From the IMG/VR virus record IMGVR_UViG_2563366877_000003, positions 1 through 41,474 of that record: a stretch of DNA of 41,474 nucleotides; one strand, given 5' to 3'. Shown piece after piece: positions 1,174 to 36,307 of the stretch. Source of the stretch: a virus (Duplodnaviria; Heunggongvirae; Uroviricota; Caudoviricetes). The position numbers and the translations under genes are program-made. Below the pieces are notes generated by a model. That model searched no databases and was not told the origin of the DNA. It worked only from the letters and a program-made list of their open reading frames with translations. Each line of letters begins with the position of its first letter. Within the stretch, counting starts at the first letter, position 1.

Positions 1174-1962
1174 ACCCTCAGGAGTTTCAAATAGCTGTTC
1201 TTTTTACGGAAATACTTATGAACTGGCTGGAATAAAGTGCAAGAAAATGTGACTACCCTCTCATTTTTATCTGACATGATCTGTTGCCACTCGCTGTCAA
1301 ATTGTCGCGCTAAAGCTGATTAGCACGGTGATATTTGATACTCTGGCAGACAGCAGAAATAACGGATTTAACCTAATGATGAATGACGGTAAGCAACAAT
1401 CTACCTTTTTGTTTCACGATTACGCGCAACACCCCTGAGAACCGCCATGAACAAGGGTTTCATGATTTGTAATTTTAGTTTGGTACGCAATTTGGTACAC
1501 AACACAATTTTCACTTCATCGGGTAGTCATCAAACTCACCATAACGAGCATCGTTGATGATGTATGTGATCACCACAAATATCACATCTGGACTAGTTCC
1601 GTCTTCATGCGCAGGTATCTGTTCACGCCTCCCTTTCTGCAAATCCTAAAGATGAGATTTTGGGGTTTTGGGATATCTTTTAATCCTCAGTTCTCTATCC
1701 ATTCTACAAAGCAGTAATGAACCATCACCGTGTGATAGTGAGGCATCCGCTACGTTAAGCGCAGAGAAATGATGCAGTGGTGGGCGGATTGGCTTGATGA
1801 AAAGGTGGAGGGATCCACCTTAACTATCGAATGACACAAAGACTTGCAAACCAGTGCAAAGCTTTGTTTGTCTCAGTTTTGTCTCAGCAATTACAGCAAG
1901 TATCGATCGATTGAGACTTGGATGATAGACTTCATGCCTTTGATTATTAGCTGATAGAAGAA

Positions 1963-2325
1963 ATGTTAAAGCTATTTGCAAAGTACACCTCTATTGGTGT
2001 GCTGAACACACTTATACACTGGGTGGTTTTTGGTGTATGTATCTATGCCGCGCATACCAATCAGGCTCTGGCAAATTTCGCAGGTTTCGTTGTGGCTGTG
2101 AGTTTTAGCTTCTTCGCGAATGCAAAATTCACATTCAAGGCATCGACTACAACGATGCGTTACTTGTTATACGTGGGATTCATGGGAACATTGAGTGTTG
2201 TCGTCGGGTGGGCTGCTGATAGATGCGCACTTCCCCCGATGGTCACCCTTATCACTTTCTCCGCCATCAGCCTGGTGTGCGGTTTCGTCTATTCAAAGTT
2301 CATTGTCTTTAGGGATGCGAAATGA
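1963..2325 (+). CDS. gtrA: GtrA, bactoprenol-linked glucose translocase (flippase)
   Basis: 120-aa hydrophobic four-helix protein directly upstream of and overlapping gtrB; typical serotype-conversion operon order. Confidence 0.85.
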
Positions 2326-3254
2326 AGATATCTCTTGTCGTTCCTGTCTTCAATGAAGAGGAAGCGATACCAATTTTTTATAAAACGGTACGTGAATTCG
2401 AAGAGTTGAAGTCATATGAAGTGGAAATTGTTTTCATAAATGACGGAAGCAAAGACGCTACGGAGTCAATCATTAACGCTCTGGCTGTTTCTGATCCGCT
2501 AGTTGTTCCGCTGTCATTTACACGCAACTTTGGTAAAGAACCAGCATTATTTGCAGGGTTAGACCATGCAAACGGGGATGCGATAATCCCAATTGATGTT
2601 GACCTGCAAGACCCGATTGAGGTTATTCCTCATCTTATTGAAAAGTGGAAGGCAGGTGCTGATATGGTACTGGCTAAGCGCTATGACCGTTCTACAGATG
2701 GAAGACTGAAGCGCAAGACTGCAGAATGGTTCTATAAGCTCCACAATAAAATAAGCAACCCAAAGATTGAAGAGAATGTTGGTGATTTCCGGTTAATGAG
2801 CCGTGAGGTTGTCGAAAATATCAAGCTTATGCCAGAGCGCAACCTTTTTATGAAAGGGGTACTGAGTTGGGTAGGAGGCTCGACAGACATCGTCGAATAT
2901 TCCCGCGCAGAACGTGTTGCTGGTAATTCAAAATTCAATGGATGGAAATTGTGGAATCTTGCGCTCGAAGGGATTACAAGCTTCTCAACATTTCCCCTGC
3001 GCATATGGACTTATATCGGGTTAGTGGTAGCTGGCCTAGCATTTCTGTATGGCGCATGGATGATATTTGACACTCTCGCATTTGGAAATGCTGTACGAGG
3101 ATACCCTTCACTGCTGGTGTCCATTCTGTTTCTTGGAGGGATCCAACTAATCGGCATCGGTGTACTTGGAGAGTACATCGGGAGGATTTACATAGAAACC
3201 AAGGCAAGACCTAAATACATCTTAAAGGAGAAAATAAATGACAAGAAGATTTAA
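2322..3254 (+). CDS. gtrB: GtrB, bactoprenol glucosyltransferase (GT2 family)
   Basis: 310 aa, GT2-like N-terminal domain plus two C-terminal TM helices; start overlaps gtrA stop. Confidence 0.9.
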
Positions 3255-5028
3255 ATTACTACTTTTTATCTCGTTTATTATTCTAGTGGCTATGAATTGC
3301 TACATTGGATATGGTTACACCCCGAGTTCTGATCAGGCTTCTGGTGTAATCATTTCACACGACATAGCAAATGGAAACATTCTACTTTCAGGATGGTTTC
3401 TTTCAACCGTAACTTTCTATTTTACAGACCTTATTTGGTATGCATTGCTGGATATAATAGGTATCAGTAATAAAGTTCAATCATATTTAGTTCCGTCAAT
3501 CCTTATTTCTGCTCTGACAATATGCTGCATAATACTTTCATATCACAAAAAGAAGTTGCCATGGGCAATATTCTTCTCATTTGGAATTCTAGGAGCTTAT
3601 TCATCAAATATATTTAACCTTGCCGTATCACATATTGGGGCTTATTTATATACAGCAATTATTTATATTATAATAGAAAGAACAACTGTATACAAAGCTA
3701 ACATACATCATTATCTCATTGTTTTTCTCTTAAGCCTAGCCATATTTTTTAGCGACGACATAAGCAAATACGCATTTTTGATACCTTTAATTTCATCATT
3801 GGCAATTGAATTATTTTACAAACGAAATAAAGTTCACCTGCACTATGCGGCATCTATATTTCTTGCCTTTATTTTATCGAAAACACTCTTATACTACGTG
3901 CAAGAAATTGGCGGATTTCAATTGCCAGGAATAGGTTATCCTAAGTTTGCCACACAAGAAGAATTTATTAATAACTTATATTTCTTATGTGTTGGTTTAT
4001 TACGTCTTTTCGAAGCATATTTTTTTGGAATGGATATTGGGCTACAGTCTTTTTCATCAATAATTAGACTGTGCTTTCTATTGTTCTTTGTTTACATCAT
4101 TGCTTCTAATGCAAGAAAAATAACAAGATTCTCAACCATTGATAGAGCTTTGCTTCTTACGGCGATTATAATGCCGTGCGCATTCTTATTTAGTAATATT
4201 CCATCAGCGGTTGAATCAATAAGATATATTGCTCCATCTGTAATTTTCGGGGCTGTATTCATCTGTAGAAATGTAAATATAAGCCAAAAAACATCTTTAT
4301 TCCTGCTTTCCTTGTCTTTTGTTAGCGGTGCCATAATTTATGGTAACGCCATTTCATTAGATAAAAAAAACCATGAAATTAATGATATTTCAAAATATAT
4401 AAAGGAGCATAATCTTAAAGCAGGTTTTGCTTCATTCTGGTTTGCGTCGTCAGTTTCATTAAATAGTGGTTCAGAGATATCGCCAGTAGTATTTAATAGC
4501 CATGAAGGAAGTGTAAAACCATTTTTATGGTTAGCTAAAATAAATAATTATGAGCAAAACAATTCATTTATTATAGCTGATAGTAAAGAAGACATGGACG
4601 CTGCAATAATGCAATATGGAAGACCTGATGTAATTGATAAAGTCATGTCAAAGTTTATCTTAGTATGGAATGACGGGATAAATATACCATTTACCGGTTT
4701 TCACACGTTAACCAATTCAAAATACTTTGGTTCTCTAGGTTATAGTGATGAATTTCAAGTATGCAAAAAAGACGGTGCTACATTCTTGGTAACAGGACCA
4801 TACAAACCTCTCAAGAAAGGTATGTATAAAATGCATATTGAAAAAAGTGGTAGAGGTGATGTATTAGGTGATATTGTAGCGTTTGGTGGTAAAAAATTAA
4901 TTGCTAAAATCAATAATGTAGTTGACATGGATTTCTACATTGATAAAACCTATCCTGATGTCGAGGTGAGAATATATAACTCAGACACAAGTTCATGTAT
5001 TAGCTCAATTTCAATAGAGATGAAATAA
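3238..5028 (+). CDS. GtrC-type serotype-specific O-antigen glucosyltransferase, polytopic membrane protein
   Basis: 596-aa ORF overlapping gtrB end, many hydrophobic segments, strongly AT-rich compared with flanks; third position of a gtr operon. Confidence 0.6.
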
Positions 5029-5037
5029 TTATATTTA

Positions 5038-5067
5038 CTGGCAGCAGCATGCTGCCAGTTCTTTATC
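5038..5067. terminator. Hairpin terminator between convergent gtr operon and tailspike gene
   Basis: Perfect 8-bp stem ctggcagc/gctgccag with 5-nt loop, followed by T-rich run on the plus strand and A/T-rich on the other. Confidence 0.5.
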
Positions 5068-5170
5068 AAAAGACTGTAACTGTTATTTAGTCAATAAAGC
5101 TTCATTTAAAACTTGATTGAACATATAAATCATGAAATCACATAAATCTATATACAGCATCCAAGTGTGA

Positions 5171-6961
5171 TCAGTTATCATTAAGGCCTACATTTGCCAT
5201 GGCTGTATAAACTGTCCTTCCAGACCCTGTCTGCCCTACCACTCCGGGTACACCTACGAAAGTGTTGCCAGTTATTACCCATGCAAGGTTATCGTTGGTG
5301 TTAAAGTTTATCCCTCCAGTGCATGTATTCCATCCGCCAGTGACTTTCTGGTTACCGAAGAAATTACCATTCACAGTAACATTACGACAATATTCTGCTT
5401 TTATTGCATAACCGTTGCAACTACTGAATTGGTTATTACCCATTAATAGATTCTGCACGTCATAGAGGTACATGCATTCCTGACCGGCGAAATGGATAAC
5501 ATTGGCGTTAAAGCTAAGTCCCAAAACCTCTGTTGCACGTATTGCTGGAGTCCCTGACACTCTGCCTCCAGAAAACAGGCTGTTTGTGATAGTTCCTACC
5601 GCCACTCTGTTAAGGTCCAAGCAATAACCGTCAATATTGTCAATTACGCTATTAGTTATAAATACCGGTAATCCCCGAGAATCCGCCCCTGAATCTAAAG
5701 GTCGGTGTGTCGTTGACTTTATGCCGTAAGGTCCGTAAAACATCGAAGTGCCTACTAGTCTCAAATCGGCAACATCAGTTATATCTATAGGGGATCTGAC
5801 CATATAGCAGTCGATAAATGCTGGACCCTCGTTAATAGGAAATGCTGGTGATACACTGGCCTCGTTAATTGTGGTCATACTGTCGATTAATACGCAGCCA
5901 TTCCAAGTAACCCAGTGTAAATCTGATGCGTAAATCGGTGCCTTGTAAAAACCGCACTTATCAAATTTAAATAGACTCGCATGTTGCAGTGATATAGCCG
6001 CATTGCTGGGGGTAGAGCTGGAGTCATTACTAAAATGAATGCGCTCGAACACTGTATTTTCAGCCCAAGAAGATGCACTCCCGGTGTTGGCGAAGAACAC
6101 CGTGGCGTCCGCATTTATATTTTTGTTTCGCCAGAATGTTTTAGCGCCACCGCTGCCGATGAAATGCATAGACGGCTTGATGACGCATGGAGGTGTAAAG
6201 TAGTAGCTTCCGTACTGAAACTCTATCGATCGACCTTCATATAACTGTGCGTTAGCCAGGATAGGAGAATGATCTAAACTCTGATCTTCAGATTTGCCAC
6301 CGAACCATTCAATTATAACATGACTACCTGCGCCACTTCGTACCCAATATACAGATGGGGAAGCAGACGAAATAAATACTCCATCATCATCTGTGTAATT
6401 CCCTGATACAGCTACGAAAACACCACCACCTAACAAACCACGTCCTGTGGTGTGCTCCTTCACCATGGCCTTATCACCTACAGATGGTGCTACATCCCGT
6501 AAATTTGATATTTCGGCATATTCACCTATGAGATTCAGCCCATCTTCACTACCCAGGTTATCATAACTAACGGCACCATTAACTAAGTTTACGCCGCCCT
6601 GTGAAGACAAATCCTGTCGTAACTGATCAGGGTCATACTTCAGCACATTAGGAAAATAGAACTGCTGCGCACCGTACGTATCATAAACAGCCATCGAATG
6701 ACCTTGCACAGTTACGAACTTGGCAATCTGTCCGTTATATACAGGGTAACCAGCAGAGTTAATAATGATTGGTTGCGAAACAGGAATGTGAGAGCCGTCT
6801 TCGTTCTCTACATAAACCTGAATCTGGTTTTCAGGATTTACAGGGTCAGTGTCAATTTTACCGATATAAATCTTTCCATTAGCTACGGCTTTAAAAGAAC
6901 GAGCCATAGTGAAGAGTTGCGAAGGCATGCTGACCACAACATTTGCGGTGATATCTGACAT
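5171..6961 (-). CDS. Tailspike protein, P22 gp9-type N-terminal head-binding domain with divergent receptor-binding domain
   Basis: N-terminus [10 protein letters not shown]...[12 protein letters not shown]...DTDPVNP...VTVQGHSMA...NVLKYDPDQ matches P22 tailspike head-binding domain; remainder differs. Start set at internal ATG 6961 rather than the ORF-track start 7009. Confidence 0.85.
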
Positions 6962-7082
6962 TTCATTGCTCCAGACGAATGATATGATGCAACCATGATG
7001 TGATTGCATACCGAAATGGTACTATTGAGTATTTATCCAGTAGGTTACGATGCCATTCCACCCAACTGGTGAGGCATCAAGG

Positions 7083-35345: not shown

Positions 35346-35672
35346 ATGGATGCACAAACACGCCGCCGCGAACGTCGCGCAGAGAAACAGGCTCAATGGA
35401 AAGCAGCAAATCCCCTGTTGGTTGGGGTAAGCGCAAAACCAGTTAACCGCCCTATTCTCTCGCTGAATCGCAAACCGAAATCACGAGTAGAAAGCGCACT
35501 GAATCCGATAGACCTTACAGTGCTGGCTGAATACCACGAACAGATTGAAAGCAACCTGCAACGTATTGAGCGCAAGAATCAGCGCACATGGTACAGCAAG
35601 CCACGCAGTGAAATGGGTGTGACTTGTGTTGGTCGCCAGAAAATGAAATTAGGCAGCAAGCCACTTATTTGA
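35346..35672 (+). CDS. N: Antiterminator N
   Basis: From internal ATG 35346: MDAQTRRRERRAEKQAQWKAANPLLVGVSAKPVNRPILSLNRKPKSRVESALNPIDLTVLAEYH..., matches lambda N; the ORF-track start is a GTG extension. Confidence 0.9.
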   Translation: MDAQTRRRERRAEKQAQWKAANPLLVGVSAKPVNRPILSLNRKPKSRVESALNPIDLTVLAEYHEQIESNLQRIERKNQRTWYSKPRSEMGVTCVGRQKMKLGSKPLI

Positions 35673-35683
35673 GAGGAATTAAT

Positions 35684-36307
35684 ATGTCATCAATCCGCTT
35701 AACTACGAGAATGAAAGAGGAAATCGCTCGTAACGCTTTAATTAAGTCTGGGGTTTTCACTGAACTTGAAGAAGTAACAAAGTTAAAGAACCAGCTTGCA
35801 CTTGACGCCAGAGTTATTGCGTTTGGCGGTAAAAAGAAAACTGAGGAAGTGGATCAGTTATCATCTAAGTTTGTAGCTATAAGTGAAGAACTTGAAAAGA
35901 TGGGATGTTCATTTTACTCATACGATTTTCGTTCTACTTCAATTTATCTGACTGTATCTGGCAGAAGGGTTGGATGGCATTCATATGGGAAAGACGGCAA
36001 CGGCGAAGATATATTTCTCCCTACTCCAACCAAAGATAAATGCATGTTTGACGCAGAACACGAAATAACAAAAAGGTTTGATGAAATCTGCGCATTGCAA
36101 CAAAAACTTGAAGCCAAGAAAAAGGATATCGAATCAAATGTATGGGCTGCTTTAAACTCAGTCACAACAGTTAAGCGACTCATTGAAGTTTGGCCTGAAA
36201 GCAAAGAATTGCTACCAAAAGAAGCAGATAAAGCAAGTACAGCACTTCCTGCTTTACGGGTAGAGGATTTGAATAAGATGATTGGACTTCCTTCCGAGGC
36301 CGCATAG
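35684..36307 (+). CDS. Hypothetical early-left protein immediately downstream of N
   Basis: 207 aa from ATG 35684 with GAGAGGA upstream; soluble, Lys/Glu-rich; no recognised motif. Confidence 0.5.
   Translation: MSSIRLTTRMKEEIARNALIKSGVFTELEEVTKLKNQLALDARVIAFGGKKKTEEVDQLSSKFVAISEELEKMGCSFYSYDFRSTSIYLTVSGRRVGWHSYGKDGNGEDIFLPTPTKDKCMFDAEHEITKRFDEICALQQKLEAKKKDIESNVWAALNSVTTVKRLIEVWPESKELLPKEADKASTALPALRVEDLNKMIGLPSEAA

Follow-up and report, generated by a model that had tools for sequence, protein, structure and literature searches.

A GtrI-family third gene with a predicted carbohydrate-binding-like module in the gtr operon of a P22-like prophage

The subject of this analysis is a putative serotype-conversion operon in the DNA of a tailed virus (Caudoviricetes; IMG/VR record IMGVR_UViG_2563366877_000003, positions 1 to 41,474; this whole 41,474-nucleotide stretch is called the window below), and above all its third gene, an open reading frame (ORF) of 596 amino acids (aa) plus stop at 3238-5028 on the forward strand, referred to here as ORF3. 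The window is a P22-like prophage that adjoins dacD and has virion genes ~95% identical to those of phage IME10. We consider it likely that the region works as a gtrABC operon for lysogenic conversion, sited where the attachment site ends this prophage, and that ORF3 is a GtrI-family glucosyltransferase of the GT-C type carrying a module that resembles a carbohydrate-binding module (CBM). As a system the operon is a standard GtrABC, and the unusual part is the third protein.

The operon opens with gtrA (1963-2325, forward strand; 120 aa), which encodes a small membrane protein matching PF04138 (E 8.8e-14) and phrog_2224, annotated 'GtrA-like O-antigen conversion' (E 8e-70). It is followed by gtrB (2322-3254, forward strand; 310 aa), encoding a glycosyltransferase family 2 (GT2) bactoprenol (undecaprenyl phosphate, Und-P) glucosyltransferase with a match to PF00535 (E 8e-32) and 88-92% identity to the GtrB proteins of SfI, SfII, SfIV and P22. 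The overlaps measure 4 nt between gtrA and gtrB and 17 nt between gtrB and ORF3, and a terminator-like hairpin with a 10-bp stem containing 6 GC pairs (5037-5059, or 5037..5069 with its T-rich tail, forward strand) begins 9 nt past the ORF3 stop. The reading frames lie exactly where a first-pass annotation of the sequence had put them, its description of gtrA and gtrB as conventional agrees with these matches, and the operon is indeed convergent with a tailspike gene on the reverse strand (5171-7009), as in P22 and epsilon34. The three components of a GtrABC system were thus all found: a GtrA-family protein, a GtrB close to characterised GtrBs, and a variable, low-GC, polytopic third gene. Placement of the third gene at the prophage end beside a tail or tailspike gene is also the layout of P22, epsilon34, SfI, SfII, SfIV and SfV.

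The G+C content (GC) is 0.46 in gtrA and 0.43 in gtrB but 0.32 in ORF3 (0.26 at third codon positions), with 0.44 in the tailspike gene and 0.47 in the whole window. The AT-richness of ORF3 is real and sharp, yet it is usual for the gtr(type) position, since the third genes of P22, SfII, epsilon34, SfI, SfIV and SfV have a GC of 0.318-0.334. The first-pass annotation had taken it as a sign of separate acquisition; the difference in composition stands, whereas the allele-specific meaning falls away, because a low GC common to all gtr(type) third genes speaks for a foreign origin of these genes in general.

By sequence, ORF3 is a distant relative in the GtrI sequence family, which has no Pfam or NCBIfam model. 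Searched whole and by domain, the protein matched nothing in Pfam or NCBIfam. This includes PF14264 Glucos_trans_II, with no match at E<=0.1 where P22 GtrC reaches 1e-33 and GtrII 2e-30, and PF19528 DUF6056, which epsilon34 GtrC matches at 4e-67. A tblastn search of 50,697 phage records found nothing, and in megablast and blastn searches of 5,426 complete E. coli genomes ORF3 had no match, the sole match being to an IS1414-like remnant downstream of it. Searching the PDB sequences with the family profile returned chance matches only (E>1). BLASTP against GtrI of SfI gave 24% identity over 368 aa (E 1.6e-8). A profile of 17 family sequences scored 81 bits against the same protein (profile positions 25-490), and a profile of 161 sequences scored 123 bits over GtrI residues 11-504, almost its full length. 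By comparison, GtrII, GtrIV, GtrV, P22 GtrC and epsilon34 GtrC gave no more than 11 bits, and the typed Gtr enzymes other than GtrI belong to other Pfam families (PF14264, DUF6056) or match weakly. This gap in score identifies ORF3 as a distant member of the GtrI lineage. At 596 aa it is longer than the typed Gtr(type)/GtrC proteins (417, 437, 486, 486, 506 and 551 aa), in agreement with the unusual length remarked on in the first-pass annotation.

A word-indexed protein search recovered 18 relatives of ORF3, the closest in other E. coli isolates (99.8% identity), Salmonella enterica (73%), Enterobacter roggenkampii (60%) and Xenorhabdus bovienii (55-56%), and the remoter ones being proteins of ~490 aa and ~600 aa. 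An exhaustive profile search put the size of the family at 5,624 representatives at E<=0.001 and 920 at E<=1e-30, with members in Enterobacter, Escherichia, Salmonella, Serratia and Pseudomonas that are nearly always annotated as 'hypothetical protein'. Eight family loci, every one short-form, came from a scan of genome contigs that depended on a peptide pattern. Matches of ORF3 in PHROGs were to families of 'unknown function' only, such as phrog_22113. The 285-position profile of phrog_22113 corresponds to ORF3 residues 312-596 alone (E 1.5e-177), and its source was probably a set of truncated gene calls for this very protein.

Across 162 family sequences a small set of residues is nearly invariant, namely D32 (99%), H132 (98%), D173 (88%), R329 (97%) and Y330 (93%), together with G46, N47, W53, P183, G396, W401, G461 and P463, and ORF3 retains every one of them. 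GtrI shares D32, G46, W53, H132, D173, P183, R329, G396, W401, G461 and P463, with F in place of Y330. The ratio of nonsynonymous to synonymous substitution rates (dN/dS) between the E. coli and Salmonella genes is 0.14 in the membrane domain, 0.13 in the middle domain and 0.17 in the C-terminal domain; the last value indicates that selection constrains the C-terminal domain as much as it does the remainder of ORF3.

Topology and domain prediction over 3238..5028 divides the protein into three parts. Residues 1-375 (3238..4362, forward strand) would form a GT-C membrane domain of 11 transmembrane helices with the N-terminus inside, which would leave the last 223 residues in the periplasm. Residues 376-486 (4363..4695, forward strand) are predicted to form a periplasmic alpha/beta domain that is found family-wide, GtrI included. 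It is marked by the motifs G396-[FY]-x-x-F-W401 and G461-x-P463, and the profile match to GtrI extends through it. Residues 487-596 plus the stop codon (4696..5028, forward strand) are modelled as an added C-terminal beta-jelly-roll of ~110 aa. The AlphaFold2 model behind this division was built from 17 sequences, with a mean predicted local distance difference test score (pLDDT) of 82.6 and a predicted template modelling score of 0.81. Its membrane fold superimposes on solved GT-C enzymes; the fold comparison gives, as figures without a label, 19.3 for Pmt4, 18.8 for ALG12, 18.7 for ArnT, 18.1 for AglB, 16.2 for AftA and 15.6 for PglB. Foldseek against viral predicted structures returned weak matches only, the best relevant one being a protein of Oenococcus phage phiS13 (TM-score 0.36-0.45). 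Clusters of K and R (RRFK, HKKK, KRNK and RKITRF) sit at alternate loop ends of the model helices, and loops 26-77, 128-132, 173-175 and 319-324 have zero K or R, a pattern that agrees with the predicted topology. Of the near-invariant residues, D32, G46, N47 and W53 all fall within loop 26-77, which is predicted to be periplasmic, and D32 lies just past the first transmembrane helix (TM1). The first periplasmic loop after TM1 is the usual site of the catalytic acid in GT-C enzymes.

The extra length of ORF3 is thereby predicted to be a discrete added C-terminal domain with a CBM-like beta-jelly-roll fold. The first-pass annotation had suggested a membrane glycosyltransferase with an added C-terminal domain, and the modelled GT-C fold followed by a jelly-roll at 487-596 bears this out. 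The domain is present in 45 of 162 sampled family members (28%) and absent from the other 117 and from GtrI. It came out as an all-beta jelly-roll in two independent models, one of the full-length protein and one of residues 376-596 alone (pLDDT 85.3), and it superimposes on solved CBMs of the CBM6/35/36-like type, with a porphyran-binding CBM also listed in the fold comparison. Long forms share the signature G520-P-Y, G528, Y530, E576 and R578 (GPY...G.Y...E.R). A Cys509/Cys587 pair occurs in eight of the nine long forms of our first alignment, missing only in the most divergent one, and could fit a disulfide in the periplasm. No report of a CBM in GtrC-type enzymes came up in a literature search.

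The closest architectural parallel is ORF12 of Citrobacter youngae O1, the founder of CAZy family GT136 (Kelly et al. 2024, PMC11127046). In ORF12, TM1 is followed by a small helical periplasmic domain, and TM11, the last of the 11 transmembrane helices, by a beta-rich C-terminal CBM. With an Und-P-monosaccharide as donor, the enzyme attaches side-branches to O-polysaccharide that has already been polymerised in the periplasm, and its CBM binds the unmodified O-polysaccharide (PMC11127046). Its essential residues D31, H106 and R349, and Y350, whose change causes partial loss (PMC11127046), are paralleled in ORF3 by D32, H132 and R329-Y330. The comparison between ORF12 (MH325883.1) and ORF3 is one of architecture and catalytic-residue pattern alone, not of sequence, and the two differ in several respects. 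The E34/Y35 motif of ORF12 is absent from ORF3, which has S35-G36 there. ORF12 is encoded in a chromosomal O-antigen locus, uses Und-P-ribofuranose and works with a phosphoribosyl pyrophosphate (PRPP)-dependent synthase and a MATE-type flippase, whereas here GtrB (GT2, using UDP-glucose) and GtrA are encoded in a prophage. The partner genes typical of GT136, a PRPP-dependent polyprenyl-phosphoribose synthase and a MATE/SMR transporter, thus have GtrB and GtrA in their place. The mycobacterial enzymes EmbC and AftD, GT-C arabinosyltransferases with lectin-like CBMs, are a further precedent for joining the two modules, but they are much larger than ORF3, use a decaprenyl-phosphate-arabinose donor and a cell-wall arabinan acceptor, and are not phage-borne.

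Among phage enzymes, GtrI of SfI (506 aa) occupies the same slot downstream of gtrA-gtrB in a prophage and has ~33% GC. A long periplasmic C-terminal end has been reported for GtrI (PMC3259042). Unlike ORF3, GtrI stops after the alpha/beta periplasmic domain, without the ~110-aa CBM-like domain, and SfI is of the myovirus type and bears tail fibres, whereas the present prophage is a P22-like podovirus with a tailspike. The acceptor and linkage of GtrI are not to be assumed for ORF3. P22 GtrC and SfII GtrII (both PF14264) and epsilon34 GtrC (DUF6056, PF19528) are alike in operon slot, low GC and presumed reaction type, but these proteins of 486-551 aa have no significant similarity to ORF3 and lack the added beta-domain at this position.

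Linkage to gtrA and gtrB is common in the ORF3 family. A GT2 gene lies directly upstream of the close ORF3 homologs in E. coli, Salmonella and Xenorhabdus, and most of these loci have a called GtrA gene as well. Nine further loci were screened by tblastn, and seven of them have gtrB adjacent or near: gtrA and gtrB are directly upstream in four (Serratia, Enterobacter, Pantoea and a contig labelled Bacillota), and gtrB is ~4 kb off in three Pseudomonas loci. The remaining two, a Citrobacter homolog and a metagenome bin, are without gtrAB in the DNA examined. In Citrobacter freundii (locus L012, 2367-4190) the homolog is a 607-aa long form, 32% identical to ORF3, that lies beside thrS and is convergent with another tailspike type (Tail_spike_N); it presumably relies on gtrAB encoded elsewhere. 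Given the identity of GtrB and the linkage with gtrAB, the donor used by ORF3 is most likely undecaprenyl-phosphate-glucose.

The tailspike gene that faces the operon (5171-7009, reverse strand) is a P22-type gene with a mechanical call of 612 aa; translation probably begins at the ATG at 6961, for a product of 596 aa that would match the 596-aa calls in related loci. Its receptor-binding part is a beta-helix (5171..6622, reverse strand) with matches to PF13229 and NosD. Its P22-type head-binding domain (6623..6961, reverse strand; PF09008, E 2e-66), with PDB matches to the N-termini of the Sf6 and P22 tailspikes, is one that P22-like phages have kept conserved, and it serves as the homology arm on the right-hand side of a cassette. 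Two other E. coli genomes carry a P22-like prophage at the same dacD site. They are ~92% identical to the window from dacD through gtrB up to 3203-3256, and the identity resumes at 6621-6623, which is the junction between the receptor-binding and head-binding parts of the tailspike. Between these breakpoints both genomes hold another gtrC (PF14264-type or DUF6056-type) and another tailspike body. The block between the conserved gtrB and the head-binding domain has been replaced whole, and ORF3 and the receptor-binding part (3257-6622) therefore make up one replaceable cassette. The segment 1835-7400 is also 98.9% identical in E. coli prophages located at the bioA-ybhB site (loci L002 and L004); its presence at both bioA-ybhB and dacD indicates that it has moved between prophages with different integration sites. 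Examples of host genomes with the cassette are GCA_000601175.1 and GCA_021089185.1.

The same pair recurs beyond E. coli, with a tailspike receptor-binding part that is 74% identical in Salmonella (locus L005) and 70% identical in Xenorhabdus (locus L008). Judged from these sequences, the pairing of gtrC allele and tailspike allele is conserved across E. coli, Salmonella and Xenorhabdus. Such co-inheritance is expected of two proteins with one O-antigen as their common target. Salmonella Cerro was the isolation host of the virulent phages FSL SP-031, -038 and -049 (PMC3728262), whose tailspike is 65% identical to the receptor-binding part. Of the clusters of ORF3 homologs, the largest holds 532 sequences, mostly from serovar Cerro, where the gene sits beside a 596-aa tailspike. 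In the Cerro draft genomes the listed cluster members are partial proteins of 83-549 aa; the single Cerro locus that was read begins at a contig end, suggesting assembly breaks in a repeat and not gene decay. One Salmonella genome (GCA_970595615.1) has two gtrB-ORF3-tailspike copies ~42 kb apart (contig 108-122 kb and 150-164 kb) with differing integrases alongside. In the E. coli 1-110-08 isolates (loci L001 and L003) ORF3 is near-identical, and the tailspike lacks ~150 bp near its C-terminal end (equivalent to 5283-5431), giving a 539-aa call.

Our best explanation builds on computed gene order, homology, fold, conservation, selection and cassette structure, from which we infer the donor sugar, the acceptor, binding by the CBM-like domain and the effect on the phage. 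GtrA would flip undecaprenyl-phosphate-glucose to the periplasmic face of the membrane, and the ORF3 protein may then attach this glucose at a specific site on the host O-antigen. Catalysis would take place on the periplasmic face, at a site made up of H132, D173, R329-Y330 and, from the first periplasmic loop, D32, and by analogy with ORF12, EmbC and AftD the jelly-roll could act as a CBM that keeps the unmodified O-antigen chain close to this site. The prophage's own tailspike would thus meet a changed receptor, and we propose that this leads to less superinfection and less tailspike damage to the lipopolysaccharide (LPS) of the lysogen. In phage BTP1, GtrC shields the O-antigen of the lysogen from the phage's own tailspike and blocks superinfection (PMC4413052). 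The first-pass annotation had suggested that the operon would modify the O-antigen which this prophage's tailspike probably recognises; the block replacement and the recurring pair in Salmonella and Xenorhabdus lend the link to the tailspike indirect support, and O-antigen modification itself stays an expectation. A more far-reaching version, which we put forward as speculation and think unlikely, is that the CBM-like domain and the tailspike receptor-binding domain read the same O-antigen epitope. The two would then form a 'read and rewrite' cassette (3257-6622) that moves as a unit, by recombination at gtrB and the head-binding domain, across E. coli, Salmonella (Cerro included) and Xenorhabdus. 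The CBM and not the membrane domain would set acceptor specificity, and could hence be swapped to retarget glucosylation.

Several points weigh against the interpretation of ORF3 as an O-antigen glucosyltransferase with a sugar-binding module. Its identity to GtrI is only 24%, so the specificity of GtrI is not transferable to it. The topology inferred above rests on the model and on charge bias, not on a dedicated predictor or reporter fusions. Residues 487-596 match no Pfam CBM model, even at E<=10, and are 7-12% identical in sequence to CBMs, so the CBM assignment is at the level of fold only; the jelly-roll fold is widespread and no proof of sugar binding. Moreover, the CBM of ORF12 was dispensable for activity under the conditions tested (PMC11127046), and the Citrobacter freundii homolog has no adjacent gtrAB. 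One alternative keeps ORF3 as an active GT-C transferase and gives the beta-domain a role other than acceptor binding, such as a structural cap, a module for oligomerisation or for a partner (e.g. Wzz, WaaL or Wzy), or a decoy for the tailspike. We regard this as a minority possibility.

The remaining alternatives concern the activity itself. The acceptor of ORF3 could be a surface glycan different from the O-antigen, such as enterobacterial common antigen, capsule or LPS core, and the sugar moved to it could be glucose or some other one linked to Und-P. The breadth of the family (5,624 representatives at E<=0.001) and its reach to Pseudomonas and Serratia mean that acceptors must vary, and the Citrobacter homolog without adjacent gtrAB points the same way. 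We nevertheless find this improbable, as ORF3 stands in the canonical gtr(type) slot beside a tailspike of an O-antigen-specific type and is swapped together with its receptor-binding domain, GtrI as the sole characterised family member modifies O-antigen, and the receptor-binding domain is related to that of Cerro phages while Cerro carries an ORF3 homolog. ORF3 could also be a passenger gene that is inactive or in decay, in an operon that no longer converts serotype. This would fit the IS1414-like remnant directly downstream, which marks past insertion activity, the occurrence of the Salmonella Cerro homologs only as partial database proteins, and the 150-bp deletion in the neighbouring tailspike of one related E. 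coli prophage. However, the frame is intact here and in the E. coli, Salmonella, Enterobacter and Xenorhabdus homologs, so that full-length copies exist in four genera where truncated or inactive homologs would be expected of a dead gene. All conserved family residues are kept, and dN/dS is 0.13-0.17 in every domain. The Cerro fragment that was read starts at contig base 1, the other listed members are labelled 'partial' in their source, and the two cassette copies in one Salmonella genome suggest assembly breaks over truncation. Decay is therefore very improbable. Finally, ORF3 might not be a glycosyltransferase and instead be another polytopic O-antigen enzyme, e.g. a Wzy-like polymerase or an acyltransferase. 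An 'O-antigen polymerase' gene does lie between the integration-site end and the tailspike in certain E. coli prophages (H16, H17), and ORF3 is without a Pfam or NCBIfam match; even so, we give this idea the least credence. The reading of ORF3 as a GtrI-family GT-C glucosyltransferase with a CBM-like module is the one we retain.

Upstream of the operon, the region at the prophage end (1835..1962, forward strand) is SfI-like, and homology both to SfI and to the copy at the other integration site (L002) begins at ~1835-1838. An alignment with P22, SfI and the related loci L002 and L007 showed a single GATC here and no ~87-bp P22-type insert with its four GATC sites. Since this insert is missing upstream of gtrA, phase variation of the P22 Dam/OxyR type is unlikely, and we rejected it for this operon. 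No tRNA that could serve as an integration site is present in the window. Between dacD and the prophage end, a 63-bp stretch (1511-1573) has 86% identity to the interior of a Peptidase_S24 (repressor-like) gene that flanks the Salmonella cassette (L005), and may be the remnant of an earlier element at the dacD site. The IS1414 (IS256 family) remnant covers ~115 bp (5054..5168) with ~77% identity to one IS1414 end. It sits between ORF3 and the stop of the tailspike gene; the Salmonella cassette is without it and has a gap of 35 bp there. In the early region, a 227-aa ORF (35624-36307, forward strand) matches PF18757, Nmad5 (nucleotide modification associated domain 5; E 4e-72), suggesting that the prophage may modify DNA or counter restriction.

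Gtr(type) enzymes create much of the O-serotype diversity in Shigella, Salmonella and E. coli and set which phages and antibodies recognise a strain, and most gtr(type) alleles are still unannotated. The operon itself was known as a type; new here are the assignment of the ORF3 allele to the GtrI lineage, the recurrent CBM-like module and the gtrC-tailspike cassette shared across genera. A large family of 'hypothetical proteins' is now tied to the characterised GtrI, and about a quarter of its sampled members (45/162) carry the CBM-like module. The Cerro-phage-related receptor-binding domain, together with the presence of an ORF3 homolog in Cerro, suggests this homolog as a candidate gene for a phage-determined O factor of that serovar, as a lead only. 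If the module binds the acceptor, it would offer a handle for predicting or engineering the specificity of side-branch addition, and the GT-C-plus-CBM design of Emb/AftD and GT136 would extend to phage serotype conversion.

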